Shown in pieces: positions 6,555-41,321 of a DNA stretch of 64,000 bases. Numbering within the stretch: the stretch's first letter is position 1; the number at the start of each line of letters is the position of its first letter. Origin of the DNA: Bacteroidales bacterium (GTDB taxonomy: Bacteria > Bacteroidota > Bacteroidia > Bacteroidales > UBA12077). The notes beneath the pieces were generated by a model. The model did no database searches, was not told the DNA's origin, and was given only the letters and a program-made list of their open reading frames with translations. The DNA is taken from NCBI GenBank assembly GCA_028282785.1, contig JANQHE010000024.1, positions 73,612 to 137,611 of the forward strand, given 5' to 3'. The translations under genes and the position numbers were made by a program.

Positions 6555-8339
6555 ATGTTTAAAAATAAGTCATTAAACTTTTTAATAGATATTTCAAAAA
6601 AAGGAAAATATCGTTTGGTTATATCAGGCATACTTATCTTTTTTAGTTCTATTTGTGCACTTGGGCCCTATTATATTACCTACTTAATTATCGATAAAAT
6701 AATACACCCTCCGTTTATCATGCACGACCTGTTGATACTTGGCGCTATTGCTGCCACGTTTATTGTCGGGCAGATGATCTTTTCAGGTATTGCAATGACC
6801 CAATCTCATATAGCTGCATATAATATTTTATTCGACTTACGTGTAGCTGTTGCTAATAAGTTAACAAAATTACCACTAGGTTATTACTCCGATACCAGTT
6901 CAGGGAAAATCAAAAAAATTATGATGGGGAATATTGAAGCAATTGAAGAATTTATAGCCCATAATTTAGTTGATTTAATTTCGGTTATTTTTCTTCCGGT
7001 TATCATTTTTTCATGGTTAGCTTCTCTAAATCTTACATTGGCGTTTTTAAGTATTTTCCCTGTTTTTCTTGGTGTAGCATTACAACGATTCAGGATGAAA
7101 ATAGAGGCAGGTAATATCCGCAAATTTTTCAAAATAAAATCAGATATGAACACTACAATTATTGATTTTATAAAAGGAATGCCTGTAATTAAAGCATTTA
7201 ATTTGTCGGTTTTTTCTTTTAAAAAATACAAAGAAGAAGCTGACAGATATAGTCAGTACTGGATTAATATGAATAAAAATGCGGCAGCATTTTTTGCAAC
7301 GTATGCTCTTTTGATGGATTGCGGTGTATTGATATTATTGCCGGTGGGAGGTTATATGTACGCAGTTGGTAAAATCACACTTTCTGCTTTTTTAATGTTC
7401 ATGTTTATTGGAATAGGGCTCTCCCGTTTTATGAAACAGCTTACCAACTTTGGTTCAAACCTAACCCAGATTTTTAAAGGTGTTGATGAAATAAGGGAAA
7501 TTTTTAAAACAAAAGAAATTGTTAACAACGGAAAAGTTTCCAAACTGGAAAATTATGATGTGGAATTTAACCATGTTTCATTTTCTTATGGTGACCAGCT
7601 CGTACTCGATGATGTAAATTTTAAATTAAAACAGGGAACAATTACGGCATTGGTCGGACCGTCCGGAGCCGGAAAAACTACTATTGCCAGGTTAATACCG
7701 CGCTTTTGGGATGTCACAAAAGGAGAAATTACCATAGGAAATCATAACCTAAAATCGATTCAGGGCGATGAATTAATGAAGAATGTTGGTTTTGTGTTCC
7801 AGGATATTTTCATGTTCAATGATACTGTAATTGAGAACATCCGCATGGGAGACACATCTGTTTCAGAAGAAAAAGTAAAAGAAATTGCCAAACAGGCCCA
7901 GGCTGATGAATTTATTCAAGGATTAAAAGACGGATATCATACGGTTATCGGCCCTACAGGTGTTCATCTGAGTGGAGGAGAACAACAACGCATTGCCATC
8001 GCCCGGGCGTTGGTTAAAGATTCACCTGTTATTGTGTTAGATGAGGCAACCAGTTATGCAGATACAGAAAATGAAGATAAAATTCAAAAAGCACTGAATG
8101 CACTTCTAAAAAACAAAACCGTAATAGTAATTGCGCACAGGCTCTCTACCATTCAAAATGCCAATCAGATACTCTATATCGAAAAAGGAAAAATCAGGGA
8201 ACAAGGTAACCACAAACAATTAATCAATGAGAACGGTAGGTACAAGCAAATGTGGGATCTGCATATGGATGCAGCTCAGTGGGGGATTAAACAAACCGGG
8301 GGATCATTGACAAACAGAAAGGAGGAAGTAACATGTTAG
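6555..8339 (+). CDS. ABC transporter permease/ATP-binding protein (exporter half-transporter)
   Basis: N-terminal 6-TM domain. Walker A GPSGAGKTT, signature LSGGEQQR, Walker B VIVLDEATS, H-loop IAHRLST. Confidence 0.9.
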   Translation: MFKNKSLNFLIDISKKGKYRLVISGILIFFSSICALGPYYITYLIIDKIIHPPFIMHDLLILGAIAATFIVGQMIFSGIAMTQSHIAAYNILFDLRVAVANKLTKLPLGYYSDTSSGKIKKIMMGNIEAIEEFIAHNLVDLISVIFLPVIIFSWLASLNLTLAFLSIFPVFLGVALQRFRMKIEAGNIRKFFKIKSDMNTTIIDFIKGMPVIKAFNLSVFSFKKYKEEADRYSQYWINMNKNAAAFFATYALLMDCGVLILLPVGGYMYAVGKITLSAFLMFMFIGIGLSRFMKQLTNFGSNLTQIFKGVDEIREIFKTKEIVNNGKVSKLENYDVEFNHVSFSYGDQLVLDDVNFKLKQGTITALVGPSGAGKTTIARLIPRFWDVTKGEITIGNHNLKSIQGDELMKNVGFVFQDIFMFNDTVIENIRMGDTSVSEEKVKEIAKQAQADEFIQGLKDGYHTVIGPTGVHLSGGEQQRIAIARALVKDSPVIVLDEATSYADTENEDKIQKALNALLKNKTVIVIAHRLSTIQNANQILYIEKGKIREQGNHKQLINENGRYKQMWDLHMDAAQWGIKQTGGSLTNRKEEVTC

Positions 8340-10060
8340 AAGTTATAAAACTAATAGCAGGGAAATATCGTAGCCGTATGGTGAGGGTTACCCTTATATC
8401 GGTTTCAGAAGCTATTTTTGGGGCTGTGCCATTTGTCGTATTGTATTTTCTTTTATGCAACGTTATCGACAATACATTTACCGTACAAAAACTTTGGACC
8501 TATATATATATTATAGCAGGTAGCGCTATTTTTCGAATGTTGTTTTCATACCTGAGTGTTACCCGTTCGCGTGCAGATGGAACAAATATGGTTAAAGACT
8601 TAAGGTTAAGGTTGGGCGAACATATCCGAAAACTTCCTTTAGGTTTTTTTTCCAGCCACGATACCGGTGAATTGTCAAATAAAACACTGGATAATGTTAA
8701 TAAAGTGGAACAAATCATTACCATGCTTTTACCCGAGTTTATTTCAACACTTGTGCTGAGCATGTTAGTAGCTACAGGTTTGTTTTATATCGACTATCGA
8801 ATGGCAATTGCAACCATTATAACCATGCCGGTTGCTTTGAGCCTGCTTATTTGGGCAAAAAAAATAATGCATGTAAGAGGAAAAGCGTTGTATCAATCTT
8901 CATCGGATTTAGCAAATGGTATTATCGAATTTGTTAGTGGTATCAAGTTTATCAAATCTTTTAATAATTCTCAGAAGAAATTTGATGACCTGGTTGAAAA
9001 AATGGACGATTTCAAAAAGCGAAGCTTGAAAGTTGAAGGCACTTTAAGTCCTGTTATGACATTGTCTGGTATCTCAATTGATTTTGGATTGGTCATGTTG
9101 ATATTGATGGGCTCATATTTTATTGTTGGTGGCAGCCTGAGTGGAAAGACATTCATCATTTTTATTATAATCAGTTCCCGTTTTTTTGAGAATCTTAAAA
9201 CCATATCGATCAATTATGTGAAGATTAGATACCTGTTAATTGCCGGTCAATCCATTCAAAATTTATTCAATGAAAAACAACTTTCAGGAAAGAAATCTGA
9301 CTTGGATTTAAAAAAGCAAAATATTGTTTTCAACAACGTTTCGTTTGGATATAATGGAACAAAAGTATTAAAGGAGATTAACGTTACTATTCCTCACAAT
9401 TCATTAACTGCATTGGTTGGCCCTTCCGGTTCAGGAAAATCTACAATGGCAAACCTTATAGCAAGGTTCTATGATGTGGACAATGGTGATATTTGTATTG
9501 GACCGTATAACCTTAAAAATGCAGAACCGGGAAGAATTCTTCAACAGGTAAGCATGGTATTTCAAAAAGTTATCCTTTTTAAAGATACCATATATAACAA
9601 TATTAAGGTAGGTAAAAATGATGCAACCGAACAAGAGGTGATAAATGCAGCCAAAAAAGCAAACTGTCATGATTTTATTTCAAAACTGCCGAATGCTTAT
9701 GAAACCATGGTTGACGAAAATGGAACAAACCTCTCAGGGGGAGAACAACTCAGGCTTTCAATTGCACGGGCGATGTTAAAAGATGCCCCTATTGTTCTAC
9801 TCGACGAAGCCACTTCTTCTCTCGACCCTGAAAATGAGTTTTTTATACAAGAGGCTATTTCAAACTTGCTGAAAAACAGAACAGTTGTAGTTATTGCTCA
9901 CCGCCTTAAAACCATTAAAAATGCAGATAAAATAATTGTTCTTAATGATGGCCGGATTTATGAAGAAGGAACCCATCGCGATTTATTGACAAAACAAGGT
10001 TTATATAGTAAAATGTGGCAAACCCAGGAAAGTACGGTTGGCTGGCAGCTTACAAACTAA
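8333..10060 (+). CDS. ABC transporter permease/ATP-binding protein (exporter half-transporter, partner of 6555..8339)
   Basis: Start overlaps the upstream stop by 7 nt. Walker A GPSGSGKST, signature LSGGEQLR, Walker B IVLLDEATS, IAHRLKT. Confidence 0.9.
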   Translation: MLEVIKLIAGKYRSRMVRVTLISVSEAIFGAVPFVVLYFLLCNVIDNTFTVQKLWTYIYIIAGSAIFRMLFSYLSVTRSRADGTNMVKDLRLRLGEHIRKLPLGFFSSHDTGELSNKTLDNVNKVEQIITMLLPEFISTLVLSMLVATGLFYIDYRMAIATIITMPVALSLLIWAKKIMHVRGKALYQSSSDLANGIIEFVSGIKFIKSFNNSQKKFDDLVEKMDDFKKRSLKVEGTLSPVMTLSGISIDFGLVMLILMGSYFIVGGSLSGKTFIIFIIISSRFFENLKTISINYVKIRYLLIAGQSIQNLFNEKQLSGKKSDLDLKKQNIVFNNVSFGYNGTKVLKEINVTIPHNSLTALVGPSGSGKSTMANLIARFYDVDNGDICIGPYNLKNAEPGRILQQVSMVFQKVILFKDTIYNNIKVGKNDATEQEVINAAKKANCHDFISKLPNAYETMVDENGTNLSGGEQLRLSIARAMLKDAPIVLLDEATSSLDPENEFFIQEAISNLLKNRTVVVIAHRLKTIKNADKIIVLNDGRIYEEGTHRDLLTKQGLYSKMWQTQESTVGWQLTN

Positions 10061-25215: not shown

Positions 25216-27513
25216 ATGCAGAATATCTTACTCATATACTTCCTGTTTTCATTGGGAATCTTTGTCATTCCAGTTAAGGTTTTTAAATACAAAGCCATCG
25301 TTCTGGCTTTGGTTCAGGTAGGTGCATTTATATATTTTGCATCAAAGATTCCAATCATAACAGATGGCGAAACCATTAATTCGATCCTTAACTGGATTCC
25401 GGAGTTAGGATTAAATTTATCCTTTATCCTTAATGGTCTAAGCCTTGCATTTGCGTTACTAATTACTGGAATTGGAGCCTTGGTATTTATATATGCCCAT
25501 GCTTATATGAAAAGTTATGCAAATACAGATAGGTTCTTTTTCTTCCTGTTCCTGTTTAGCGGTGCCATGTTGGGTTTGGTTCTTTCTGAGAATTTAATTC
25601 AGCTCTTTATTTTTTGGGAACTTACCAGCTTTCTGTCTTTTTTGTTAATTGCATTTTTCCACGAAAAGGAACCGGCACGAAAAGCTGCCTTTCAGTCGTT
25701 ATTTATTACTGGATTTGGGGGCTTAATCTTATTAACAGGGATCATACTTATTGGCAGCGTTGCCCAAAGTTATTCTTTAACCGAATGGATTCTAAAGGCA
25801 GATGAAATACGAAGTAGTGCATTTTATGTGCCCGGTTTAATTTTGATACTGATCGGTGCCTTTACCAAATCGGCCCAGTTTCCTTTTCACTTTTGGTTGC
25901 CAGGTGCTATGCAGGCACCTACTCCTGTGAGCTCTTATTTGCATTCTGCTACTATGGTAAAAGCAGGGTTCTTTTTACTCGCAAGCTTAAACCCGGTTTT
26001 GAGCGGAACCATAGAGTGGACATACATCATTCCATTATTCGGGGTTATTACCATGTTGGTTGGAGCTTATTTTGCCATTACACAAACAGATATAAAGGCA
26101 ATACTGGCTTACACAACCATTACAGCTTTAGGAATTTTAATATTACTGATAGGGGTTGATACGAAACTATCCATTAAAGCCGCTATTTTATTTTTATTCA
26201 TTCATGCCTTTTATAAGGCTACTCTGTTTATGGTGGCTGGATTAATCGATAAGAAAACAGGCACACGCGATCTATCAAAACTGGGAGGTTTGGCTCATTA
26301 CATGCCTATAACTTTTATAGTGGCATTGTTGGCATTATTTTCTATGGCTGGCTTCCCTCCAATGCTTGGATTTTTAGGTAAAGAATTGGTTTACGAAGCT
26401 AAAGTTCAATCACCCGGAATAGCATCCCTGATTTTAATATTTGGTGTGGCAGCAAATGTTTTAATGATTGCCGTTTCTTTATTTTTTTTAAAAAAAGTAT
26501 TTCTTGGAAAAAAGAATAATTACAGTAAAAATCCAAACGAAAAGGGTTTATTTATTGTTGGCCCGGCCTTGTTAGCAACCTTGAGCTTGTTCTTTGGACT
26601 GTTCCCAAATATTTTAGGTAATTCAATAATCGAACCGGCAATACAAAGTATTTTTCTAGAAACCTACCATGTTAAACTAAAACTATGGCATGGGTTCAAT
26701 AAAGTTTTCTTTTTAAGCCTGTTTACAGTTGCATCAGGTATTTTATTATTTTATTTAATTGATAAATACCCTAAACTTCTTGAGAACTGGAGAAAACTAA
26801 ACAATAAAATATTTACCATAAAGTTAGCCGATGTATTTTCCAATGGCTTGGATAACTTTATTGAGTTTTCTAAGCGAAATACCAGGGTCATTCAGCATGG
26901 ATACCACAGGTATTACCTATTAACTATTATAGTTGTTACGGCACTCTTATTATGGTTCCAAGTATTTGTTACACGGGGTTGGGAGCTGCCAACCAAATTA
27001 TCTTTTAACCCGTTTTACATTTCAGGTTTAATAGGTATCATTATAATATCAACAATTTTTAGCGCAATAAATAAGTCTCGTATAGCAACCATTATTGCAA
27101 TGGGTGTTGCCGGTTACGGGATATCGCTTATATTTTTATATTACAGTGCTATCGATTTGGCTATTACCCAAATCATCGTTGAAACTCTCACTGTGGTAAT
27201 GTTTGTGATTGTATTGCAGAAACTACCACGTTTTGCTAAACTCTCATCCAAAGTAACCAAAATACGTGATTTAGCCATTGCATTGGTTTTTGGGTCTGTA
27301 ATGACAATTTTGGCCCTTAAAGCGGTTCAGGTAGAATTTAACCACACAATTTCTGATTTCTTTGTTGAGAATAGCTATTTAAAAGCTTATGGAAAAAATG
27401 TAGTTAACGTAATATTAGTCGACTTTAGAGCACTGGATACATTAGGTGAAATTACGGTGTTAACCATTGCTGCCTTAGGTGTATTTGTTTTACTTAAAAA
27501 GAAAAAAGCATGA
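25216..27513 (+). CDS. mrpA: Na+/H+ antiporter Mrp/Mnh subunit A
   Basis: 765-aa NuoL-like polytopic protein (WELTSFLSFLLI, KSAQFPFHFWLPGAMQAPTPVSSYLHSATMVKAG) with a C-terminal MnhB-like extension. First of a 7-gene mrp operon. Confidence 0.9.
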   Translation: MQNILLIYFLFSLGIFVIPVKVFKYKAIVLALVQVGAFIYFASKIPIITDGETINSILNWIPELGLNLSFILNGLSLAFALLITGIGALVFIYAHAYMKSYANTDRFFFFLFLFSGAMLGLVLSENLIQLFIFWELTSFLSFLLIAFFHEKEPARKAAFQSLFITGFGGLILLTGIILIGSVAQSYSLTEWILKADEIRSSAFYVPGLILILIGAFTKSAQFPFHFWLPGAMQAPTPVSSYLHSATMVKAGFFLLASLNPVLSGTIEWTYIIPLFGVITMLVGAYFAITQTDIKAILAYTTITALGILILLIGVDTKLSIKAAILFLFIHAFYKATLFMVAGLIDKKTGTRDLSKLGGLAHYMPITFIVALLALFSMAGFPPMLGFLGKELVYEAKVQSPGIASLILIFGVAANVLMIAVSLFFLKKVFLGKKNNYSKNPNEKGLFIVGPALLATLSLFFGLFPNILGNSIIEPAIQSIFLETYHVKLKLWHGFNKVFFLSLFTVASGILLFYLIDKYPKLLENWRKLNNKIFTIKLADVFSNGLDNFIEFSKRNTRVIQHGYHRYYLLTIIVVTALLLWFQVFVTRGWELPTKLSFNPFYISGLIGIIIISTIFSAINKSRIATIIAMGVAGYGISLIFLYYSAIDLAITQIIVETLTVVMFVIVLQKLPRFAKLSSKVTKIRDLAIALVFGSVMTILALKAVQVEFNHTISDFFVENSYLKAYGKNVVNVILVDFRALDTLGEITVLTIAALGVFVLLKKKKA

Positions 27514-27926
27514 ACTCGGTGATTCTGCAAATAGCAGCCAGGTATATTAAAGCATTGTTAGTACTTTTTGCAATGATTGCTTTATTACGGGGGCATAATT
27601 ACCCGGGAGGCGGCTTTATTGGTGGCTTGTTGGCAGCATTGTCAGTTATTTATTATGGTTTTGCATTCAATGTAAGGCAAGTTCGCGAAAAACTAAAAGT
27701 TAACCCGGCAACTTATATAGCGATAGGATTATTTTTAGTCGTTTTAAGCTTTATTCCTTCTATATTAAATCAGTTAGAACTGATGCAAGGAGTATGGCTT
27801 AAAGTTCAGATACCGGTTCTGGGCGAGTTAAAATTAGGAACACCTTTCTTGTTCGATATGGGTGTGTTTTTAACAGTGATAGGTGTTACATTTTTATTTT
27901 TTTTCTCATTAACAAAAGTTGAATAA
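27510..27926 (+). CDS. mrpB: Na+/H+ antiporter subunit B
   Basis: 138 aa. GHNYPGGGFIGGL motif. ATGA overlap with mrpA. Confidence 0.85.
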   Translation: MNSVILQIAARYIKALLVLFAMIALLRGHNYPGGGFIGGLLAALSVIYYGFAFNVRQVREKLKVNPATYIAIGLFLVVLSFIPSILNQLELMQGVWLKVQIPVLGELKLGTPFLFDMGVFLTVIGVTFLFFFSLTKVE

Positions 27927-28270
27927 TGGAGATTTTATTAGCCATATTGGTTGGAATATTATACACCGCCGGTGTTTATATGATACTTCGTCGAAGCATT
28001 GTAAAATTTATTATTGGGATTATTTTCTTGAGCAATGCTACAAATCTATTGGTTTTTCTCGCTTCGGGAGTAGTTTCGGGAAAGCCGGTATTTGTGGGCG
28101 AAGAACCGGCCAATGCATCTCAAATGGCAGACCCGTTGCCTCAGGCTTTAGTTTTAACAGCAATTGTTATCGGTTTTGGAATAGTAGTTTTTACATTGGC
28201 ACTAAAATATAAGTTTTTTGAGCTTACCGGAACCGACGATTTGGATCAATTGAAAAAAACAGATAATTGA
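27926..28270 (+). CDS. mrpC: Na+/H+ antiporter subunit C (NuoK-like)
   Basis: 114 aa, 3 TM. DPLPQALVLTAIVIGF motif. Confidence 0.85.
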   Translation: MEILLAILVGILYTAGVYMILRRSIVKFIIGIIFLSNATNLLVFLASGVVSGKPVFVGEEPANASQMADPLPQALVLTAIVIGFGIVVFTLALKYKFFELTGTDDLDQLKKTDN

Positions 28271-28271
28271 T

Positions 28272-29753
28272 ATGACCATTACTGCACTTCCCATATTAAT
28301 TCCTTTTGTACTGATAATTATTTTGATTATCTCAAGGTCTTTGGTATTTTCTAAAATAACGAGTATAGTCGGGAGCTTTGGTTTATTGATTTTATCAATG
28401 ATCATATTTTACAAGGTTAATAAACTGGGATTCCTGGTGCTTAATATGGCGGGATGGAAATCGCCTTATGGAATTACACTGGTGATTGATTTTATGAGTA
28501 GTCTAATGCTCATGGTTTCATCTGTTATAGTTTTTGCCATTGCAATATATGCATACAGATCGTTAAACGAAGAGAAACAGGTTACTAAGTTTTATGTGTT
28601 CTTTTTTTCATTAATAATGGGAGTGAATGGAGCCTTTATTACTGGTGATGTTTTCAATCTTTACGTTTGGTTCGAGGTTATGCTTATTTCGTCCTTTGTT
28701 TTAATAACCTTCGGAAAATCGAAAGAACAGCTCGAAGGCGGAATCAAATATTTGGCACTGAACCTATTGGGGTCATTATTCTTTTTGGCAGGCTTAGGAT
28801 TGCTGTACGGCAAAACGGGCACTTTAAATATGGCTCATCTGGCAGATATACTTAGAAATGACCATCAGGCAATATTGATGAATACCTCAGCCATTTTGTT
28901 TTTTATTGCATTTGGAATTAAAGCAGCTGTTTTTCCATTATTTTTCTGGTTGCCTGCATCATACCATACAGCCAATATAACCATCTCATCTTTGTTTGCA
29001 GGCTTATTAACCAAGGTAGGAGTTTATGCATTTATTCGTTTTTTTACACTGTTTTTTGTACACGACCAGGCCTTTTGGCATCAGTTTTTATTAATCATTG
29101 CAGGCTTTACTATGATTATTGGTGGTATGTCCGCATCAGTACATTACGATACAAGAAAAATTTTATCCTATCATATTATTAGTCAGATCGGATATATGAT
29201 TATGGGATTAGGCATATATACTCCTTTGGCAATTGCAGGAGCAATATTTTTTACCATACACAATATGATAGCTAAAACGAATACATTTATAGTGGCTGGA
29301 TTAATTTATAAATTAAAAGGATCTTTTTATCTGAAAGACGTGGGTGGAATCATAAAACAAAACCCTGTGTTGGCAATTTTATTTGTAATACCGGCTTTCG
29401 CTTTAGCCGGAGTGCCGCCTATATCCGGGTTCTTCGCGAAATTTATCCTTATAAAAGCAAGTATAGATGATAGTCATTTTGTAATTGCAATAATAGCTGT
29501 ACTTACTGCCTTACTTACGCTATATTCTATGATAAAAATATGGAACGAAGCGTTCCTTAAAAAACAGCCTGATAATGAATTTTCAGGCCAAAACACAAGC
29601 TTAAGCTTTCTGGATATGTTGCCATCTATAATTTTAGGGACTATAAGTATTTTAATGGGAATATTTGCATTTAAAGTGTTTGATTTTACAATGCAGGCAG
29701 CAGATCAATTGATAGAAGGAACGAGTTATATTAATAATGTTTTAAATAGGTAG
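28272..29753 (+). CDS. mrpD: Na+/H+ antiporter subunit D (NuoM/N-like)
   Basis: 493 aa. FFWLPASYHTANITISSLFAGLLTKVGVYA matches the proton-pumping antiporter-like fold. Confidence 0.9.
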   Translation: MTITALPILIPFVLIIILIISRSLVFSKITSIVGSFGLLILSMIIFYKVNKLGFLVLNMAGWKSPYGITLVIDFMSSLMLMVSSVIVFAIAIYAYRSLNEEKQVTKFYVFFFSLIMGVNGAFITGDVFNLYVWFEVMLISSFVLITFGKSKEQLEGGIKYLALNLLGSLFFLAGLGLLYGKTGTLNMAHLADILRNDHQAILMNTSAILFFIAFGIKAAVFPLFFWLPASYHTANITISSLFAGLLTKVGVYAFIRFFTLFFVHDQAFWHQFLLIIAGFTMIIGGMSASVHYDTRKILSYHIISQIGYMIMGLGIYTPLAIAGAIFFTIHNMIAKTNTFIVAGLIYKLKGSFYLKDVGGIIKQNPVLAILFVIPAFALAGVPPISGFFAKFILIKASIDDSHFVIAIIAVLTALLTLYSMIKIWNEAFLKKQPDNEFSGQNTSLSFLDMLPSIILGTISILMGIFAFKVFDFTMQAADQLIEGTSYINNVLNR

Positions 29754-29759
29754 ATTGAA

Positions 29760-30092
29760 ATGCAGATATTAAAGAAAATATATTATGTGGTGGAATTTGT
29801 GCTTTTCTATTTTTTAAAACTAGTGCAATCCAATATTTATATTGCATACGATATATTAACACCTAATCTGAAAAGTTTTCCCGGAATTGTGAAAGTACCT
29901 TTGTACATCAGTTCCGATTTTGGCATATTGGCTTTTGCTAATTTACTCTCTATGACTCCAGGTACTTTGACAATAGATGTCAGCGAGGATAAAAAAGAAA
30001 TTGTAGTGCATGTTTTATATAGTAAAAATAAGGAAGCTGTGATGTTTGAAATAGGCCAGGTACAACAAAAAATAAATAAAATCTTTAGTTAG
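29760..30092 (+). CDS. mrpE: Na+/H+ antiporter subunit E (short form)
   Basis: Position in the operon. SMTPGTLTIDVSEDKKEIVVHVL matches the MnhE core. 110 aa. Confidence 0.7.
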   Translation: MQILKKIYYVVEFVLFYFLKLVQSNIYIAYDILTPNLKSFPGIVKVPLYISSDFGILAFANLLSMTPGTLTIDVSEDKKEIVVHVLYSKNKEAVMFEIGQVQQKINKIFS

Positions 30093-30094
30093 TT

Positions 30095-30367
30095 ATGGAA
30101 ACAGGTTTTCCAAATATAAGTTTAATTATATCCTTTCTATTATTGTTAGGAGCATTGATCATTACCTTATTTAGGTTAATAACAGGCCCGACAATTTACG
30201 ACCGGATCGTTTCTCTTGATTTAATTGCTTCGATCGTAATGGGGTTTATCTTATTGTACAGTATAGTTGTAAATAAGGCCGTTTATTTTGATGTAGTAAT
30301 AGTTATTTCATTAATAGCTTTTATTGGAACCGTTTCAATTTCAACTTATTTAAAAACAAAGAAATGA
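30095..30367 (+). CDS. mrpF: Na+/H+ antiporter subunit F
   Basis: 90 aa, 3 TM. GPTIYDRIVSLDL motif. Confidence 0.8.
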   Translation: METGFPNISLIISFLLLLGALIITLFRLITGPTIYDRIVSLDLIASIVMGFILLYSIVVNKAVYFDVVIVISLIAFIGTVSISTYLKTKK

Positions 30368-30651
30368 CTGATATAATTATTTCAATATTAATACTTTTAG
30401 GAACTGCTTTTATATTTATAGCATCATTAGGGTTATTCCGTTTTAGTGATATATATAGCAGGATGCATGCCAGTACAAAAGCTACTTCATTTGGGATCTT
30501 ACTAATTATAATTGGAATTGGATTATTTTTTAACACCGCAATTATATGGCTTAAAGCACTTTTAGTGGTGGTATTTATATATTTAACAGCACCACTTTCA
30601 GCGCATTCCATTGCCAAATCTTTCGGAGATAGAGAAAAGAATAATAATTAG
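30364..30651 (+). CDS. mrpG: Na+/H+ antiporter subunit G
   Basis: 95 aa. FRFSDIYSRMHASTKATSFG and TAPLSAHSIAKS motifs. Confidence 0.85.
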   Translation: MTDIIISILILLGTAFIFIASLGLFRFSDIYSRMHASTKATSFGILLIIIGIGLFFNTAIIWLKALLVVVFIYLTAPLSAHSIAKSFGDREKNNN

Positions 30652-31082
30652 GGCAATTTTTCTTTTCTTTTAAGTTTGATTTTAAAATCTGCTTTTTTTA
30701 TCAGAAAATAAGTTACACCTAAAGCTACTATCATTCCTGCCAGGCTGATTAACTCTTCCGTGGAATATTTTTTGAAATCCCAAATAATGACTTTTCTTGA
30801 AATAGCTATGATAGCTACCAGTATAATAAATTCTACATGTACAATGTCATCTTTAAGGTATGCCTTAATGGTTTCTAATAGCTCTAACCCAATGAGCAAT
30901 ACCAAAAATAAACTAAACAAGTTCATTAAACCATTGGCATCAATAATAAACATGGGTTTTTTAACAATTTCCTGTATTATTTCGTAAATGATATCAATGA
31001 ATGCTAACAGTATAATAGTTAGCATAACAATTAGGATCCCCCAAATTAATAACTTCTCTGTGTTTTTAATAAACTTTAACAT
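30648..31082 (-). CDS. PsiE-like (phosphate-starvation-inducible E family) membrane protein
   Basis: 144 aa, 4 TM. LIGLELLETIKAYLKDDIVHVEFIILVAIIAISRKVI resembles PsiE. Confidence 0.45.
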   Translation of the reverse strand: MLKFIKNTEKLLIWGILIVMLTIILLAFIDIIYEIIQEIVKKPMFIIDANGLMNLFSLFLVLLIGLELLETIKAYLKDDIVHVEFIILVAIIAISRKVIIWDFKKYSTEELISLAGMIVALGVTYFLIKKADFKIKLKRKEKLP

Positions 31083-31168
31083 TTCGTTTAAAGAATCATT
31101 TTAATTGATAAACATATGTTAAAATTAATTGTTTAATTTTCTAATAACAATTATTAATGGAAATTATC

Positions 31169-32314
31169 ATGAAATTATTGGATAATATATTATTACCAAT
31201 CGATTTTAGCGACTCATCGGAAAAAGTTGTTGATGCTTCGGTTCAGTTAGCCAAAACCTTTAAATCAAGGATTACTTTGTTGCATGTGTACTCAGAAGAA
31301 CATTTTCCCGAAAAAACAGAAAGATTCCTTGAAATTGCAATTAAAGATAACCTGGAAAAAGTTAAAACTAAAATTACAGAGGCTGATATTGAGGTAGCAG
31401 AAATAATGATGGAAAGAGGTGTAGCATTTGAAAAGATTATTCAAATTGCCCAGGATAGGGATGTTAACGTAATTATGGTTGGCTCCGGTAGTAAAAAAGA
31501 AAATGATAATTTTAAGTTAGGCACAACAGTCGAAAAACTTATGCGCAAAAATCAGATACCACTTTGGGTTGTTAAAAACGGAGCGATTAAACCCATTCAA
31601 AAGATCGTTTGTCCGGTTGATTTTTCGAACTCTTCCATACGAGCATTTCAAAATGCTGTTACCTTAACTGAAAGGTTTGATGCTGAGTTGAATCTCATAC
31701 ATGTTTTTGAACCGGTTATGAGTACTTCAGCAAGGCTAAGCGTAAACGCTGAAGAAGAAAACAAAAAACGGAAAGAACTAAAAGAAAAAGAACTAAATGA
31801 TTTTTTAGCAAATTACCAACTTGATCATATAAGATTAACTAAAGATTTATTAATGGGAGTTCCATTTTTGGAAATACTTAGGTATATCAAACGAAATAAT
31901 TCCGATTTATTGATCATGGGTACAACAGGGAAAACTGGTTTAAGTAAACTTTTAATGGGTAGTGTTACCGAAAAAGTTACCAGGGAGCTACCTTGTAGTT
32001 TTATTACTACAAAAGCCAAAGATATAACCGATAATTACCTTGAAAGTAATTTGAAAGGAATAGAATCAATATTAAATCCGGCAAAATCTTTGCTTAAAAA
32101 AGGAAAATATGAGCAATCCATTGAAAAGTTTTTAATTGGAATAAAACAATATCCGGATAATATTCCGATGTTAAAAGGAATAATAGAAGCATATGAGGCT
32201 TTAGGAAATGAAAAGAAAGCTAGTTATTACAAAGACTATATTACGGAAGTTGTAAAAAGGATTTGGGGTGAGGAATATCTCCATATGATCAATTTAGATA
32301 AAAAGATTAAATAG
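31169..32314 (+). CDS. tandem universal stress protein with C-terminal TPR-like tail
   Basis: Two USP modules (LLPIDFSDSS, VCPVDFSNSS, MGTTGKTGLSKLLMGSVTEKV) plus KGKYEQSIEKFLIGIKQYPDN. Start chosen by alignment with the paralog at 35888..36994. The ORF track start is 31157. Confidence 0.8.
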   Translation: MKLLDNILLPIDFSDSSEKVVDASVQLAKTFKSRITLLHVYSEEHFPEKTERFLEIAIKDNLEKVKTKITEADIEVAEIMMERGVAFEKIIQIAQDRDVNVIMVGSGSKKENDNFKLGTTVEKLMRKNQIPLWVVKNGAIKPIQKIVCPVDFSNSSIRAFQNAVTLTERFDAELNLIHVFEPVMSTSARLSVNAEEENKKRKELKEKELNDFLANYQLDHIRLTKDLLMGVPFLEILRYIKRNNSDLLIMGTTGKTGLSKLLMGSVTEKVTRELPCSFITTKAKDITDNYLESNLKGIESILNPAKSLLKKGKYEQSIEKFLIGIKQYPDNIPMLKGIIEAYEALGNEKKASYYKDYITEVVKRIWGEEYLHMINLDKKIK

Positions 32315-32542: not shown

Positions 32543-35500
32543 TTAAAATAACTTCATTTGCTGTTCGGGCAGCCTGATTTTTTTTGTAGTTTCAAAATTC
32601 GTTGGTTGTAAATGGTTCTGATCAAATTCGCTCAGGAAACGCGACGCTAACATTTCTTTTTCCTGGCCGTAAAGTTTTCTTTTTTTTGCATGAACTAGTT
32701 GTAACTCATCTTTTGCACGTGTCATGGCTACATAAAATAGCCTTCGCTCTTCTTCAATATCAGTATTTTTTCTCTCCAGAGGAGATATTCCCTCTTCAAC
32801 ACCGGCAATAAACACTACAGGAAACTCCAGTCCTTTGGCTGCGTGAAAAGTCATCAGGCGTACACCTCCGCTATTTAACCTTCCTGTATCTGTATAAGGA
32901 GATAAGATATACTTTTGTAAAAAATTATTAGGATGATCGTCTGACTCGGCCGCTAACTTAATAAGCATTTCACTTTTAACCTGATCCTGAGGAGACAATA
33001 CTGATTCAGGAAGAAAGAAATCGAGTAATTGCCTGATCGTATGAATAAGCTTGTTTTTCTCAAAATCAGCATGCAGGCGGTTGTACAGAGCTATCCATTT
33101 TTTCCAGTTTTCGTGCTGTGAGATGTTTTCCATATCAATCTCTTTTTCAACAAACCTCTTTAACAGGTCTTGTTTTTGAACGGCATTTAATTCCAGGAGT
33201 TTGTCTGCTAAACCTGAAAAAGCAATCACATTTCTTTTGTTTTGAAATAGTTGCAAGGCGTTTGCAATAATATCAAAAGGAGGTTCTGAGAAAAATGAAG
33301 TCGCATCACTTAACAAAACAGGAATACCTTTTAGTTTTAATAGGTTGGCAATTTCACCGGCGATACGGTGCGTCCGGTATAAGATTGCTATATCGGAGAA
33401 AGCATAATTATAATCCGACCTGGCTCGGCCTGTACTCATGGAATCTACACCTCCCACATAATTAAGAACCTGGTCGGCAATATATGCTGCTTCCTGTTTA
33501 GAATCTTCTGCCAGGAAATATTTGATACGGATATCCTGCGTTTTTACTGCTTCAGGATTTACTTTGGACCTAAGTTGATTGCATTCTATTAGCATATTGC
33601 TCGCATTCAGTATATTGGGAGGAGTGCGGTAATTCTTTCGTAAAAAGATTTCCGTAGCTTTTAGGTCATCCTTTGCCTGGTAAAACAGCTTAACGTCTGA
33701 GCCCCTGAACCCGTAGATAGATTGATTTGGGTCACCAATGGCAAACACATGTTTATTTTCTGAAACAAGTTTAATGAACTTATATTGAACCGGATTGATA
33801 TCCTGAAATTCATCAATGGCCAGGCATTTATATTTACTCGTTATATCAGAGGAGCCAGGTTTAATCAACTCATTTACCTTACTGATGATTGCTGAAAGGT
33901 CGACAGCATTATTTTCGACAAGATATTTATCATATATTTCAAAACAAGCCTGAAATTCTTTTTCTTCCGGCAAGCGATTTTGTTCATAATATTCTTCGTA
34001 AGCATGCGAAAGTTTCCGTGTATTTATCTTATGGTCATGAAAAAGTATATTAAATAGGCTTATCCTGTTACTTTTATCATAAATAGATCCGGTTGCGGGT
34101 TTTACCTCTTTCAAAAACCGGTAAGCAACCGAGTGGAACGTACCAATAAGTACGTCTTCTGCTTTTATCCCGATTTGTTTCAGGAGGCGGTTCCTTAATT
34201 CGTCAGCAGCTTTATTAGTAAAAGTGATTGCTATTATTTCTGCAGGATCGGTTCCTTTTTCTACAATCTGATGGACAATCCATTGAATAAGGGTGTTTGT
34301 TTTACCAGTGCCTGGTCCTGCAGTTACCAACACATTTTCCTGATATTGAATGGCACTGTTTTGCTCTTCATTTGGTTTTATCTCCGGATTTTCCTCTTTA
34401 TCAGCTTGAACAACTTGTTTCATAGTCCTGTTTTTGGACTTTCTCTGAGCCATTTTTTCAATCATTCCTCCTCCAAAAATATCGGTTTGCCCGATTATCT
34501 GATTTATTTCTCCCGGATTAAATATCGAAATTATACCGAATTCTCCGTCAAATCCACTTTGTGGTTTTACCTCATGTCTACGCAACCGGCGTATAGCTTC
34601 TGCCAACAATTCGCCCGACTTAGATTTTATTTCCTCATAAGGAATTGTATGCAGTAAGTCAAACTCATTTCCAAAAGTTGAGATGATCTGTGTAAAGGCT
34701 TGTTGTACTGTTTTTGTTGTTGGTGCTGTACCCGTAAATTCCGCAATAATTTCAGGCAAAGGGATAATGTATTCAAACCCGGGAGAATTCATTGGTTTTT
34801 GTGGTTTTTCTCTGTCTGCCAATTTTTCGACCCTGTGTAATACTCCTATGGTTAAAGGTTTTCCACATTTCGGGCAAATATTGTTAAGCTTAAGACTCTC
34901 CTGTGGCTCCAGGCAAATATCGCATTTCCTGTGCCCATCCATATGGTATTTTCCTTCTTCAGGGAAAAACTCGTATGTTCCCAGAAAACCTTTCTTTGTC
35001 TTCAATGCCTCAAAAATAGCGTAATAAGACATTTCAGTATCAAAAATATTGGCTTCCCTTCCCAGTTTCCGGGGCGAATGTGCATCGGAATTCGAAACCA
35101 GCGCATATTTATCCAAAGAGGATAGTTTCCAGTTCATAGTCGGGTCGGAAGACAAACCTGTTTCCAATGCAAAGATATATTCCGACAGATCCCGAAAACA
35201 TTCTTCAATACTGTCGTATCCGGCCTTCGATCCAAGAGTGGAGAACCAGGGTGTCCAAACATGAGCAGGAATAAGATGAGCATCTTCCGACACTTCAAGT
35301 ATAATCTCCAGCAGGTCTCGTGACTGTAATCCCAATATTGGCCTGCCGTCGGAAGCCAGGTTGCCGATCTCGCTTAACCGTGCATTGATCTTTTTTACGG
35401 TATCAATATCTGGAGCTAATACGATATTATGATTTTTTCTAACCTTTTCGCCATATTTATAAATAGATGAGATTTCTGTACTAAGGCAAAAAAATATATC

Positions 35501-35749
35501 AATGTCCCTGGTTTTAATATTTGGTAGGCCTTGCTCTTTTGGTGGATTTTTTAATCGAAACAGTCCATTTCCAACCGGTTCGAGTTTTTCTTCCAATTCC
35601 TGTATCCATGCAGGATGTGTAAAATCGCCTGTACCTATAACATTTATACCTTTTATTTTAGCCCATTGATAAAGCGATTCAAGATTAAGATCTTTACTCG
35701 TAGCCCTTGAATGATAAGAGTGGAGATGAAAATCTGCAAAATACCTCAT
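32543..35749 (-). CDS. EndoQ-like PHP-domain nuclease fused to UvrD/PcrA-type SF1 helicase
   Basis: N-terminal FADFHLHSYHSRATS, GTGDFTHPAW, PAHVWTPW, SNSDAHS (PHP metal ligands) and the Zn ribbon CDIC...CPKCG (nt 34865-34924). From about aa 470: helicase motifs AGPGTGKT, DEFQD, GDPNQSIYGFRG, TFHAAKGLEFPVVF, YVAMTRAK. Confidence 0.8.
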   Translation of the reverse strand: MRYFADFHLHSYHSRATSKDLNLESLYQWAKIKGINVIGTGDFTHPAWIQELEEKLEPVGNGLFRLKNPPKEQGLPNIKTRDIDIFFCLSTEISSIYKYGEKVRKNHNIVLAPDIDTVKKINARLSEIGNLASDGRPILGLQSRDLLEIILEVSEDAHLIPAHVWTPWFSTLGSKAGYDSIEECFRDLSEYIFALETGLSSDPTMNWKLSSLDKYALVSNSDAHSPRKLGREANIFDTEMSYYAIFEALKTKKGFLGTYEFFPEEGKYHMDGHRKCDICLEPQESLKLNNICPKCGKPLTIGVLHRVEKLADREKPQKPMNSPGFEYIIPLPEIIAEFTGTAPTTKTVQQAFTQIISTFGNEFDLLHTIPYEEIKSKSGELLAEAIRRLRRHEVKPQSGFDGEFGIISIFNPGEINQIIGQTDIFGGGMIEKMAQRKSKNRTMKQVVQADKEENPEIKPNEEQNSAIQYQENVLVTAGPGTGKTNTLIQWIVHQIVEKGTDPAEIIAITFTNKAADELRNRLLKQIGIKAEDVLIGTFHSVAYRFLKEVKPATGSIYDKSNRISLFNILFHDHKINTRKLSHAYEEYYEQNRLPEEKEFQACFEIYDKYLVENNAVDLSAIISKVNELIKPGSSDITSKYKCLAIDEFQDINPVQYKFIKLVSENKHVFAIGDPNQSIYGFRGSDVKLFYQAKDDLKATEIFLRKNYRTPPNILNASNMLIECNQLRSKVNPEAVKTQDIRIKYFLAEDSKQEAAYIADQVLNYVGGVDSMSTGRARSDYNYAFSDIAILYRTHRIAGEIANLLKLKGIPVLLSDATSFFSEPPFDIIANALQLFQNKRNVIAFSGLADKLLELNAVQKQDLLKRFVEKEIDMENISQHENWKKWIALYNRLHADFEKNKLIHTIRQLLDFFLPESVLSPQDQVKSEMLIKLAAESDDHPNNFLQKYILSPYTDTGRLNSGGVRLMTFHAAKGLEFPVVFIAGVEEGISPLERKNTDIEEERRLFYVAMTRAKDELQLVHAKKRKLYGQEKEMLASRFLSEFDQNHLQPTNFETTKKIRLPEQQMKLF

Positions 35750-35887: not shown

Positions 35888-36994
35888 TCATATATCCCAA
35901 TAGCGTTTTAAAATCTCATTTTTGTAGGCTGTATAAAATTTCACTTTTTGTTGATTTTCTATGGATGTATATGAATTTATTAACCCATTAATAATAGGAA
36001 CATTATCAGGATATTGCCTAAGCCCCATTAGGTATTTATCTATTGCTTCGTTATACTTTCCTTTTTTTAATAGTTCTTTTGCAGGAATAAGAATTGATTC
36101 TACCCCTTGTAAGTGACTTTCCAGAAAATCATCGGTAATATCCTGCTCTTTAGTTGTTACTAAACTACAAGGCAGCTCCCTGGTAACTTTTTCGGTAGTA
36201 CTTCCCATTAATAATCTACTAATACCGGTTTTTCCTGTAGTGCCCATAAGTAATAAATCCGTTTTTTGTTTTTCAATAGTTTTAATAATTTCAACATTAG
36301 GATTCCCTTTTAATAATTCTTTTGTGTAAGCTATTGATTTTAAATTGAAATGGGCCAGGAAATCAGAAAAAGCAGCTTTTCTTTCTTTATAAAGCTTTTC
36401 ATTCTGTACATTTATATGCGAACCCAGCCTGATTGAATTTCCCGCGTAAGGTGTAAATATATGTATTATAGATAAATTTGCATTGAACGACCTGGCAAGA
36501 GTAATTGCGTTTTGCAATGCACGTTTGGAAGGGCTTGAAAAGTCAACCGGGCATAAAATACTTTTTATGGGTTTCACCGGTTCATTTTTTACAACCCAAA
36601 GCGGTATCTGATTCTTCCGCATAAGTTTTTCGACGGTTGTTCCTAATTTGAATTTATTATCATGCGATTTTGAACCAGATCCAACAATAATAACATTTAC
36701 ATTTTTCTTTTGAGCAACCTGGATAATTTTTTCAAAAGCTATTCCTTTTTCTATGATAACTTCCGGGATATCAAGATTCTCTTTAAAAATTTTTACTTTT
36801 ATTTCGGAGATCCTATTATAGGTATAAATTTCAATTTTTCTTTCTGTTTCCTTGGTGAGGGTTTCATCTGATGATACATGTATTATTGAGATACTGGAAT
36901 TAAATACTTTTGCTAATTGAATTGAAACATCAATTGCCCTATCAGAAGGTTCGCTAAAATCTACTGCTACTAATATGTTTTTAAGTAATTTCAT
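35888..36994 (-). CDS. tandem universal stress protein with C-terminal TPR-like tail (paralog of 31169..32314)
   Basis: Collinear with the other copy along the full length. Identical blocks include KLGTTVEKLMRKNQIPLWVVKN, MGTTGKTG and TEKVTRELPCS. Confidence 0.8.
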   Translation of the reverse strand: MKLLKNILVAVDFSEPSDRAIDVSIQLAKVFNSSISIIHVSSDETLTKETERKIEIYTYNRISEIKVKIFKENLDIPEVIIEKGIAFEKIIQVAQKKNVNVIIVGSGSKSHDNKFKLGTTVEKLMRKNQIPLWVVKNEPVKPIKSILCPVDFSSPSKRALQNAITLARSFNANLSIIHIFTPYAGNSIRLGSHINVQNEKLYKERKAAFSDFLAHFNLKSIAYTKELLKGNPNVEIIKTIEKQKTDLLLMGTTGKTGISRLLMGSTTEKVTRELPCSLVTTKEQDITDDFLESHLQGVESILIPAKELLKKGKYNEAIDKYLMGLRQYPDNVPIINGLINSYTSIENQQKVKFYTAYKNEILKRYWDI

Positions 36995-39723: not shown

Positions 39724-39755
39724 ATTAATTGAATACCATCAAGGCAGAAAACAAA

Positions 39756-41321
39756 ATGTTAAAAACAAATACAAGTAACATTCAGTCATCAGATATAGAA
39801 AAAATGATGGAACGTTATCAGTTCTCTGAAGAAATTGTTTCAATTCTTGAAATAGAAAACCTTATCCCCGCAAGGCTGTTAAGCAGGTTACACAATGTTT
39901 ACCCACAACATTCAGGTATCTTAACTTTATCAGAATTTCTATTTAAGAGGAAAAATCATTATGCGGGTTTAAACGGGTTCAGAGAGATAGTAGAAATACT
40001 GCAAAAAAATGGAATTGAAATTGGGTATTTAGAAGAACGTGAGCTTTTTATAAAGGTTTACCGCTTTTTAGCAACAAAGCATGTTCTAAATTCTATTAAC
40101 TGGCAGGATTTTAATAACGATTCAATTTTTCAATTAGTTTTCCCACAGCCCGGAATGATAAAACATGAAGTAGTTAAAACCTATAGTAATGCAAAGGATG
40201 AAGATGAAAGAAAAAAAGTTGTTGAAGATTACATAAAAGAAACAAATCCTCATGATGGTAAACAAAAATTAAACAGGCCGTGCTTTGAAAATCAGGGAGG
40301 GGTTGTTGAGGTAGTAGAAGGAGGTCAGCACAAATATCCTCAATGCCACCTGATATTCGATAAAACTACTCAAAATTGCTTTGCGTTCTGTACATATTGC
40401 TTTAGACATGCACAAGTTCGTGGCGACGAAGATATGTTTTTACAAAAGGATGCCAATCAGGTTCATGAGTATTTAAAAATACATAAAGAAATTACAGATG
40501 TGCTCATTACGGGTGGCGACGCTGGTTATATGCCATATGAACGGCTTAAACAATATGTTCTGCCTATTATTGATGACCCTGAATTATCGCATATAAAAAC
40601 ATTGCGACTGGGATCACGTGCTTTGACTTTTCATCCTGAATTAATTCTAACCACTGAATACACTAAAATACTGGGTCTATTTAAAAAGATGATAGATAAT
40701 GGGATTCAGGTTGCATGGATGACACATTTTTCTACTCCTCGGGAAGTGCTTAATATTAGTACAATAGCTGCTATTCGTCGCTTAAGAAAAAGAGGGATAG
40801 TAGTAAAAAGCCAAAGTCCGGTTATGAACCATATTAGCATTTTTACAAACCCGGATGGAACAATTGATGTGGACAAATCTGCTCAAAACTGGATAGACCT
40901 CGGGAACATTTTTGCCATGTTAACAATTGGGTTTCACTCAATGTATTGTGCCCGGCCAACAGGCGAACATCATTATTTCACGGTTCCATTAGCTGATATG
41001 AACAAGGTATTTAGCAAAGTCTACAGGTCACTGCCATCAATCAGCCGGCCCTCAAGGTATATTACAATGACTTCTTCCGCAGGGAAAACTTCTTTGCTTG
41101 GTGTTACAGAAGTTAATGGTAAAAAAGCCTTTGCTCTTAAATTTAATGAAAGTAGAAATATGGAATGGATGGATAAAGTTTATCTGGCAATCTATGATGA
41201 GAAAGAAAACACAATAGAAAGACTTAAACCATTTGATTCTGAAAAATATTTTTACGAAGAAGAACTGGGAAATCTTGAAAAAATACTTGAAGAAGCTCTA
41301 ACGAATCAACTGCAAAAATAA
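39756..41321 (+). CDS. KamA-family radical SAM aminomutase-like protein (lysine 2,3-aminomutase family)
   Basis: CFAFCTYC (nt 40377-40400), ITDVLITGGDAGYM, LRLGSRALTFHPE and MTHFSTPREV parallel KamA motifs. Long N-terminal extension. The ORF track start at 39729 is TTG, so I prefer ATG 39756. Confidence 0.8.
   Translation: MLKTNTSNIQSSDIEKMMERYQFSEEIVSILEIENLIPARLLSRLHNVYPQHSGILTLSEFLFKRKNHYAGLNGFREIVEILQKNGIEIGYLEERELFIKVYRFLATKHVLNSINWQDFNNDSIFQLVFPQPGMIKHEVVKTYSNAKDEDERKKVVEDYIKETNPHDGKQKLNRPCFENQGGVVEVVEGGQHKYPQCHLIFDKTTQNCFAFCTYCFRHAQVRGDEDMFLQKDANQVHEYLKIHKEITDVLITGGDAGYMPYERLKQYVLPIIDDPELSHIKTLRLGSRALTFHPELILTTEYTKILGLFKKMIDNGIQVAWMTHFSTPREVLNISTIAAIRRLRKRGIVVKSQSPVMNHISIFTNPDGTIDVDKSAQNWIDLGNIFAMLTIGFHSMYCARPTGEHHYFTVPLADMNKVFSKVYRSLPSISRPSRYITMTSSAGKTSLLGVTEVNGKKAFALKFNESRNMEWMDKVYLAIYDEKENTIERLKPFDSEKYFYEEELGNLEKILEEALTNQLQK

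Follow-up and report, generated by a model that had tools for sequence, protein, structure and literature searches.

An endonuclease Q-like nuclease fused to a UvrD/PcrA-type helicase in a Bacteroidales genome: a candidate clamp-tethered nick-and-unwind repair enzyme

The analysed window is a stretch of 64,000 nucleotides (nt) of contig JANQHE010000024.1 (positions 73,612 to 137,611), which belongs to the Bacteroidales bacterium assembly GCA_028282785.1. On its reverse strand lies a gene for a single polypeptide in which an endonuclease Q (EndoQ)-like nuclease of the PHP type is followed by a linker, a UvrD/PcrA-like helicase and a tail that ends in a beta-clamp-type motif (Table 1). The methionine that opens this open reading frame (ORF) also opens 118 aligned full-length homologues, which are 48–97% identical to the query and underlie the residue conservation given below. 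The first-pass annotation, made from the sequence alone, had delimited the same ORF and had read it as one chain combining the EndoQ-like and UvrD domains, and both domains are upheld by sequence matches, catalytic residues and fold. The motifs quoted there (HLHSYHS, GDFTHP, HVWTPW, SDAHS, C276xxC279...C292xxC295 and LTIGVLHRVEKLADR) are all present in the translation, and two beta-clamp-type motifs, QTDIF in the linker and QMKLF at the C-terminus, had been missed.

The whole protein was modelled with AlphaFold2 using 32 homologues as input, which gave a mean predicted local distance difference test score (pLDDT) of 81 and a predicted template modelling score (pTM) of 0.56. Both halves were modelled with confidence, and the pLDDT fell below 50 at amino acids (aa) 1055–1068 and at aa 420–456, a disordered stretch of about 37 residues that joins the two halves. 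The identity to the query, calculated per block of 30 residues over the 118 homologues, was 0.75–0.84 in the nuclease half and 0.25–0.7 in the helicase half. The precomputed Pfam family PF27218 was present on all relatives.

Table 1. Features of the fusion gene and of its neighbours (positions are those of the window; residues are numbered from the initial methionine).
Feature	Position	Strand	Remarks
Whole ORF, 1068 aa and stop	32543..35749	-	Nuclease (EndoQ-like), linker, helicase (UvrD-like), clamp-motif tail
PHP catalytic domain, aa 1–265	34955..35749	-	Residues mapped onto PfuEndoQ; metal ligands H8, H10, E92, H107, H163, D222, H224; lesion-pocket residues T166, W168, E196, G198, L199, S200, N220
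Zinc-ribbon domain, aa 266–300	34850..34954	-	Aligns with the C249/C252/C268/C271 site of PfuEndoQ
EndoQ C-terminal helical domain, aa 301–410, including TIGVLHRVEKLADR	34520..34849	-	Aligns with PfuEndoQ residues ~277–382; pLDDT 72–90
Linker, aa 411–459	34373..34519	-	aa 420–456 disordered (pLDDT <50)
Internal clamp-type motif G420-QTDIF in the linker, aa 421–425	34475–34489	-	
SF1A UvrD/PcrA-type helicase, aa 460–1050	32600..34372	-	Pfam, PDB sequence matches, fold match
C-terminal beta-clamp-type pentapeptide QMKLF, aa 1064–1068	32546..32560	-	Inside the disordered tail (pLDDT <50 at aa 1055–1068)
Segment absent from the sister-species orthologue (L002), aa ~464–1064, 1803 nt	32558..34360	-	Flanked by the imperfect 9-nt repeat GAAGAGCAA / GAACAGCAA
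Mrp/Mnh-type cation/proton antiporter ORFs	25216–27513 and 28272–29753	+	
PsiE-family membrane protein gene	30648–31082	-	Convergent, just upstream of the first Usp gene
Usp gene	31157–32314	+	Two tandem Usp domains and a C-terminal extension
Usp gene	35888–36994	-	Two tandem Usp domains and a C-terminal extension
530-aa ORF	39729–41321	+	Between purC and a CoA-transferase gene; no Pfam match at E ≤ 1e-5

The sequence of aa 5–409 matches the solved structures of PfuEndoQ, the enzyme of Pyrococcus furiosus (5zb8, 7k30), across their full crystallised length and without large gaps (E 8e-48). The model was compared with the Protein Data Bank (PDB) using Foldseek, with the 50 best matches listed, and its N-terminal half superposed on 5zb8 with a template modelling (TM) score of 0.87 (root-mean-square deviation 2.7 Å over about 426 columns) and on the DNA complex 7k30 with a TM score of 0.84; among these 50 matches EndoQ was the sole PHP-type structure. 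In PfuEndoQ, the Zn ligands are H8, H10, E76, H84, H139 and D193, whose mutants lose or lower cleavage, and the lesion pocket is formed by H139, T142, E167, L168, G169, L170, N191 and D193 (PMC5961232), of which H139 and G169, together with S171, shut out T and A (reviewed in PMC8307549). In the HMMER alignment, H8, H10, E76, H84, H139, D193 and H195 of PfuEndoQ all fall on identical residues of the query (listed in Table 1 in the same order), as do the pocket residues and the wedge residue W144, with the exception of L168T, a main-chain contact. The metal-ligand and pocket positions are invariant in the 118 homologues, apart from N220, which is retained in 116 of them. Invariant residues across the homologues also include T300, G302, V303, R306, V307, L310, D312 and R313 in the region of the helical domain. 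The comparison with EndoQ structures had been suggested by the first-pass annotation, with a generic PHP domain devoid of the EndoQ geometry as the outcome that would count against its assignment; the catalytic and pocket residues found here are those of EndoQ.

As regards the zinc ribbon, described previously as CxxC...CxxC, the domain itself aligns with the site in PfuEndoQ, while the first CxxC is partly coincidental, since C279 is a cysteine in just 22 of the 118 homologues. The pattern conserved among them is H273-x2-C276...C292-x2-C295, with histidine in place of C249 of PfuEndoQ, and judging from this pattern a His-Cys3 zinc site is plausible.

The query thus shares its three-domain fold (PHP, zinc-binding and helical), its metal ligands and its lesion-pocket residues with the archaeal enzymes (PfuEndoQ PF1551 and TkoEndoQ TK0887; PDB 5zb8, 7k30–7k33) and with the standalone EndoQ of Bacillus. 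Also shared is a short clamp-docking motif in the tail past the helical domain, which in archaeal EndoQ is a PIP box and in the query has its putative counterpart in QTDIF. The two differ in that the query is only about 30% identical to archaeal EndoQ, scores under the TIGR00375 cut-off, has histidine and not cysteine as the first zinc ligand, carries an additional fused superfamily 1 (SF1) helicase of 600 aa and a second, C-terminal beta-clamp-type motif, and comes from a mesophilic bacterium, the gene having been found in metagenomes of coral and marine origin. Short relatives that are 60–70% identical bear the NCBI name 'endonuclease Q family protein'.

The helicase half (aa 460–1048) matches PcrA, UvrD and Rep (1pjr, E 8e-57; Pfam UvrD-helicase, 3e-56, and UvrD_C, 1.7e-43), and its modelled fold, with 1A, 1B, 2A and 2B present, corresponds to that of the UvrD–DNA complex 2is6 (TM 0.75, E 2e-41). 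The full SF1 motif set that the first reading had placed at residues ~470–1068 was confirmed: motifs Q (Q463), I (AGPGTGKT, 477–484), Ia, Ib, II (DEFQD, 646–650), III (GDPNQSIYGFRG), IV (YR, 707–708), V, Va and VI (RRLFYVAMTRAK) were all found, and the key residues of each are invariant in the 118 homologues. All helicase motifs and the four-subdomain fold are therefore held in common with the SF1A helicases UvrD, PcrA and Rep (PDB 2is6, 1pjr, 1uaa), at 24–28% identity. Unlike PcrA and UvrD, the query lacks their C-terminal domain, because the alignment stops at residue 647 of the 724 residues of PcrA and the last ~75 residues have no counterpart. The score of the fusion in the PcrA equivalog model was 294 bits against a cut-off of 911 bits, below the level of orthology to the housekeeping PcrA/UvrD, and the genome has a separate 785-aa PcrA-like ORF, which covers the whole PcrA profile with 758 bits. 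The fusion helicase is an extra paralogue beside this gene. AddA, RecB and AdnB also combine a UvrD-like SF1A motor (fold matches up to E ~1e-25) with a nuclease in one chain; however, their nuclease is a C-terminal PD-(D/E)XK domain acting at DNA ends, whereas that of the query is N-terminal, of the PHP type and predicted to be a lesion-specific nickase. Beyond the shared motor, no PD-(D/E)XK domain appeared among the Pfam and NCBIfam matches of the query, and no gene of a partner subunit was found among its neighbours.

Both clamp-type motifs, QTDIF and QMKLF, lie in segments of low pLDDT. A terminal Qxx[LIM]F within the last 8 aa is present in 107 of the 118 close fused homologues, in 83 of 129 proteins that represent clusters at 50% identity and in 47 of 66 genome loci with a fusion, drawn from about 20 phyla, mostly in the form QL[S/K/G/R/D/E]LF, which, at a chance of 0.0016 per random window, represents a several-hundred-fold enrichment. 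The internal motif was found in 74, 71 and 34 members of the same sets, respectively; the G420 that precedes it does not vary, and conservation is 90% or more at both Q421 and F425. QMKLF fits the consensus QL[D/S]LF of Shiraishi et al. 2016 (PMC4858679), in whose Suppl. Fig. S1 (Sci Rep 6:25532) putative beta-clamp motifs of bacterial EndoQ homologues are placed at residues ~1004–1244. In archaeal EndoQ, the C-terminal PIP box is required for PCNA binding and stimulation (PMC4858679), and in parallel the two short motifs of the fusion probably recruit the enzyme to clamps on DNA.

The search with the full-length query returned more than 7,800 relatives, the top 120 of which, all of about 1050–1125 aa at full coverage, are named just 'UvrD-helicase domain-containing protein', 'PcrA' or 'TIGR00375 family'. 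The nuclease half, compared with 1.84 billion cluster representatives, gave 1,060 clusters at E ≤ 1e-30, and 130 of the best 150 clusters are at least 950 aa long. Scanning one genome per species for the motifs PAH[IV]WTPW and [LV]ETGLSSDP yielded at least 597 confirmed species-genome matches. The best 80 of these were taken as the locus set, in which 76 loci have a complete 3' end and 78 were used for the clustering of neighbours. The 80 loci come from a wide range of groups; the larger phyla include Bacteroidota, Rhodothermaceae, Chloroflexi/Caldilineaceae, Desulfobacterota/Thermodesulfobacteriota, Nitrospirae, several families of Actinomycetota, Myxococcota, Spirochaetota, Alphaproteobacteria, Planctomycetota and Acidobacteriota, and the set also includes Fodinibius, Latescibacterota, KSB1, Omnitrophota, Gastranaerophilales, Aerophobetes, Gemmatimonadetes, Luteolibacter, Fibrobacterota, Binatia, Endomicrobia and Oscillospiraceae. 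Among the 76 complete loci, 68 are fused, two (L033 and L037) encode the helicase as a separate ORF directly downstream and six are standalone; the EndoQ domain is fused to or stands immediately before a helicase in 70 of the 76. In bacteria the EndoQ domain occurs predominantly as this fusion, and therefore the range 'Thermococcales and some Bacillus' given previously was understated. The phyletic survey called for by the first-pass annotation accordingly finds the fusion to be common, yet patchy within the phylum and genus of the window (counts below). The metagenomes in which the gene was found were of coral and marine DNA only.

Two variant arrangements were observed beside the full-length fusions. 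At L033 (an Omnitrophota metagenome-assembled genome, MAG) and L037 (a Gastranaerophilales MAG), at about 7390–8930, an EndoQ ORF of ~425 aa is followed by a separate UvrD-like ORF that is 32–34% identical to the helicase half of the query. A conserved class of ~740 aa (P0273–P0277, P0283 and P0285–P0287) comprises the EndoQ module and helicase motifs I–IV and ends uniformly at query residue ~737; it has the linker motif, as QMNLF, and is devoid of the 2A/2B domains and of the C-terminal clamp motif. The three members of this class with source names come from one Cyclobacteriaceae MAG and two Chitinophagaceae MAGs.

A natural deletion of the helicase was found in the sister species (L002; G417:C130, 1384–2823), at a locus whose flanking Usp genes are 85–90% identical to those of the window. 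There the EndoQ ORF of 479 aa consists of query residues 1–463 (83% identity) joined to the tail ...KPGNEHQMKLF. In the DNA, an in-frame deletion of 1803 nt extends between GAAGAGCAA (E461–Q463) and GAACAGCAA (E1062–Q1064), which are imperfect 9-nt repeats, and because it runs between these repeats the product retains the clamp pentapeptide. In another family (L003; G434:C20, 1429–3028), the ORF has 449 aa, and behind it tblastn recognised about 90 aa of a degenerate helicase remnant (E 2e-9 to query residues ~632–723). Both orthologues keep all nuclease and zinc residues. The FastTree tree of 150 nuclease domains needs nine switches between presence and absence of the helicase, at least five of which are required by branches supported at 95% or more, and the query's own clade gathers 14 fused and two standalone sequences. 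As related lineages deleted the helicase and kept the nuclease and clamp motif, the helicase is an accessory and not an obligatory module. The sister species also carries a second, decayed EndoQ fragment (G417:C104:11314–11514), which covers residues 1–67 at 51% identity and has two in-frame stops.

The literature search on EndoQ/PHP–UvrD fusions and on TIGR00375/COG1379 found no paper characterising the fusion, in line with what had been presumed initially. Suppl. Fig. S1 of Shiraishi et al. 2016 already lists long bacterial homologues (1008–1244 aa), for which it gives only the positions of the clamp motifs; the word 'helicase' does not occur in that paper or its supplement, and no experiments on the long homologues are described there (PMC4858679). 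The homologues listed from Desulfobulbus, Desulfovibrio, Bilophila (QMKLF), Treponema and Spirochaeta fit the fused family in their lengths and terminal QLxLF motifs, the two features by which they are likened to it. The query appears to be one more member of a large, generically annotated and experimentally unstudied family. Set against the characterised systems, it is an EndoQ variant with a fused helicase and beta-clamp-type motifs; new are the clean natural helicase deletion that keeps the clamp motif, the estimate of how many times the helicase was lost independently and the zinc-site pattern His-Cys3.

The neighbours of the fusion in the window are genes for an Mrp antiporter, PsiE, two paralogous Usp–Usp proteins, an XRE–cupin regulator, purE and purC, a set of housekeeping or stress type. 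Short ORFs past the antiporter genes, within 25216–31082, may be further antiporter subunits. The two Usp paralogues, about 54% identical, flank the fusion gene, and the order Usp–X–Usp recurs at L002; the ORFs flanking L003 are of similar size and gave no BLAST match to the Usp genes of the window at E ≤ 1e-5. Since the upstream Usp gene lies on the same strand, 139 nt away from the fusion, co-transcription of the two is possible. The scan for sigma-70 promoters around the gene found 17 promoter-like sites against 19 expected, with a consensus that may not fit this phylum, and the terminator scan remained at chance level. When the neighbours of the 78 loci (about 20 phyla) were clustered, no conserved neighbour or operon partner emerged: the largest cluster is shared by 10 of the 78, its inspected member resembling, by its sequence, a response-regulator/diguanylate-cyclase signalling protein, and those next in size are of similarly generic appearance, an ABC-type ATPase being the example from one of them. 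At five distant loci, the neighbours are unrelated housekeeping genes. In Geobacter argillaceus (L036, 5176–5997), a gene of the uracil-DNA glycosylase (UDG) superfamily ends 3 nt ahead of the fusion on the same strand; UDG was rejected as a conserved partner, such adjacency being seen in just 1–2 of the 78 loci. In Saccharopolyspora hirsuta (L056, 9219–12269), the fusion adjoins a 1016-aa protein that has an exonuclease domain of the DEDDh (RNase_T) type; both cases are anecdotal. The genome of the window is 5.5 Mb in size and 100% complete, and contains three UDG-family genes.

On balance, we lean towards a single-polypeptide, clamp-tethered nick-and-unwind DNA-repair enzyme. In the proposed scheme, whose substrate specificity, clamp binding, order of events and direction of unwinding we infer from homology, the protein would be recruited to beta-clamps via its two docking motifs and would search for lesions while tethered to the clamp. 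The EndoQ-type nuclease would flip a deaminated base (uracil, hypoxanthine or xanthine) or an abasic site into the pocket by the Zn site and cut the phosphodiester 5' of the lesion, leaving a 3'-OH and a lesion with a 5'-phosphate. The motor, a UvrD/PcrA-like 3'-5' SF1A helicase connected to the nuclease through the flexible linker of about 37 residues, would load at the protein's own nick and track 3'-5' along the intact strand; the lesion-bearing 5' end would be peeled off, and a polymerase with a flap or 5' nuclease would replace it.

Several observations weigh against this reading. With its long disordered linker and a pTM of only 0.56, the model does not indicate whether nicking or unwinding comes first, and clamp binding is predicted from a five-residue motif alone. 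The TIGR00375 score of 158–162 bits is under the curated cut-off of 326.6 bits, as are those of all 11 matching genomes of the phylum, and the fused protein belongs to a distinct bacterial EndoQ subfamily whose specificity could differ from that of the archaeal enzyme. In the phylum of the window, the gene was found in only 11 of 401 genomes, always as frames of 1004–1163 aa, and in its genus in 7 of 24 species, as two divergent lineages (87% and ~53% identity). The helicase has been lost repeatedly, at least 5–9 times, and together with the patchiness this is less what would be expected of core repair than of a gene that is accessory or moves horizontally, in the way of defence genes. Because the genome has three UDG-family genes, the function of the fusion may be redundant. 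The literature search found no experimental study of the fused family. The main caveat is the relation to 'Wukong', a single defence protein of ~1026 aa that combines a PHP nuclease at its N-terminus with an ATPase at its C-terminus, as described in a 2024 preprint (bioRxiv 10.1101/2024.12.27.630466).

A single-gene system against phages or foreign DNA, in which the EndoQ domain senses invading DNA that contains uracil or hypoxanthine or is otherwise modified or deaminated, and the helicase powers processive unwinding and degradation after the manner of nuclease-helicase defence proteins, would accord with the spread resembling horizontal transfer, the two divergent lineages in one genus and the repeated loss of the helicase. 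It would also find a precedent in the proposal that Bacillus EndoQ, which is Ugi-insensitive, may counter uracil-DNA phages (a review citing Shiraishi 2017, PMC8307549) and in the similar outline of Wukong. Both Ppl and Wukong are single-gene proteins of ~1000 aa that begin with a PHP nuclease and end with an NTPase; in the query, however, the NTPase is an SF1 helicase and not ABC/SMC-like, the context contains no CRISPR or defence genes, and no NCBIfam model of Ppl/TrlF matched. Wukong is called an 'ATPase', not a helicase, and a non-specific DNase, which sets the query apart from it as far as the description goes. The helicase half matches the PADLOC models of GajB, up to 2.7e-76; all PADLOC matches of the fusion were to generic GajB or RT-helicase models and lay in the helicase half, as expected of any UvrD-family helicase, and they were rejected as evidence of defence because they span the generic UvrD core only. 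The nuclease half matched no PADLOC model even at E ≤ 1. No gene for GajA (OLD-family ATPase-TOPRIM) stands beside the fusion, where Usp, PsiE and XRE–cupin genes are found, and the locus is not assigned to Gabija. Among the 78 loci there was neither a conserved partner nor a Cas3-like neighbour (DExH box and Walker A in an ORF of at least 650 aa), the neighbours in the window and at the five distant loci are housekeeping genes, and a docking motif for the replication clamp is typical of repair and replication factors. The defence role on which the first-pass annotation had speculated thus gains no support from the gene context, which includes no defence island, and we regard it as quite improbable. 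In its features the protein resembles an enzyme of DNA repair more than a weapon against phages.

It could also be argued that the N-terminal half lacks the lesion specificity of EndoQ and is a PHP phosphoesterase of a generic kind, which would make the protein a UvrD paralogue with an accessory exonuclease. The TIGR00375 score, the fact that Pfam yields just a weak PHP_C match and the change of one zinc ligand (His for Cys249) point in that direction. However, the alignment with EndoQ spans all three domains at E 8e-48 with a TM score of 0.87, the pocket is identical apart from the main-chain contact, no PHP-type structure other than EndoQ was among the 50 best fold matches listed, and NCBI itself applies the EndoQ name to the short relatives. 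This reading is essentially excluded. The opposite order of events has somewhat better prospects than either of these alternatives and is still unlikely: the helicase would act first, as a clamp-tethered, ATP-driven translocase that scans at or behind replication forks and feeds single- or double-stranded DNA past the EndoQ site, and would serve for a faster lesion search or for protein clearance and not for unwinding from the nick afterwards. According to a review, EndoQ is active on both duplex and single-stranded DNA (PMC8307549), which would suit such a role, as would the clamp motifs, which suggest coupling to the replisome. The flexible linker sets no fixed geometry, and the survival of the nuclease without the helicase would be consistent with a motor that boosts efficiency rather than completes the pathway. 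On the other hand, cutting the single-stranded template at a fork would make double-strand breaks. UvrD-family helicases start at nicks in mismatch repair, excision repair and rolling-circle replication, a habit that fits the nick-first order.

The literature presents EndoQ as an archaeal enzyme with 'a few' bacterial homologues and leaves open the processing of the nick 5' of the lesion. In the present survey the domain occurs in hundreds of bacterial species from about 20 phyla, nearly always fused to the helicase and accompanied by clamp motifs, and this near-constant fusion suggests that the next step is unwinding from the nick, for which the fusion would be a self-contained one-protein system. 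The repeated deletions of the motor, with the nuclease and a clamp motif kept, would speak for a protein built of modules, the motor being an add-on replaceable by host helicases, and the helicase-deletion orthologue of the sister species provides a ready-made control construct. EndoQ is an existing reagent in deaminase (APOBEC) assays, in which mesophilic or helicase-coupled bacterial versions could be useful. More tentatively, and with somewhat less than even confidence, we propose that this fusion, and not the standalone archaeal/Bacillus enzyme, is the main bacterial form of EndoQ and may define a glycosylase-independent, beta-clamp-coupled nick-and-unwind excision of deaminated and abasic DNA. 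The nickase, specific for lesions, would there pass its own nick to a covalently joined UvrD-type motor.

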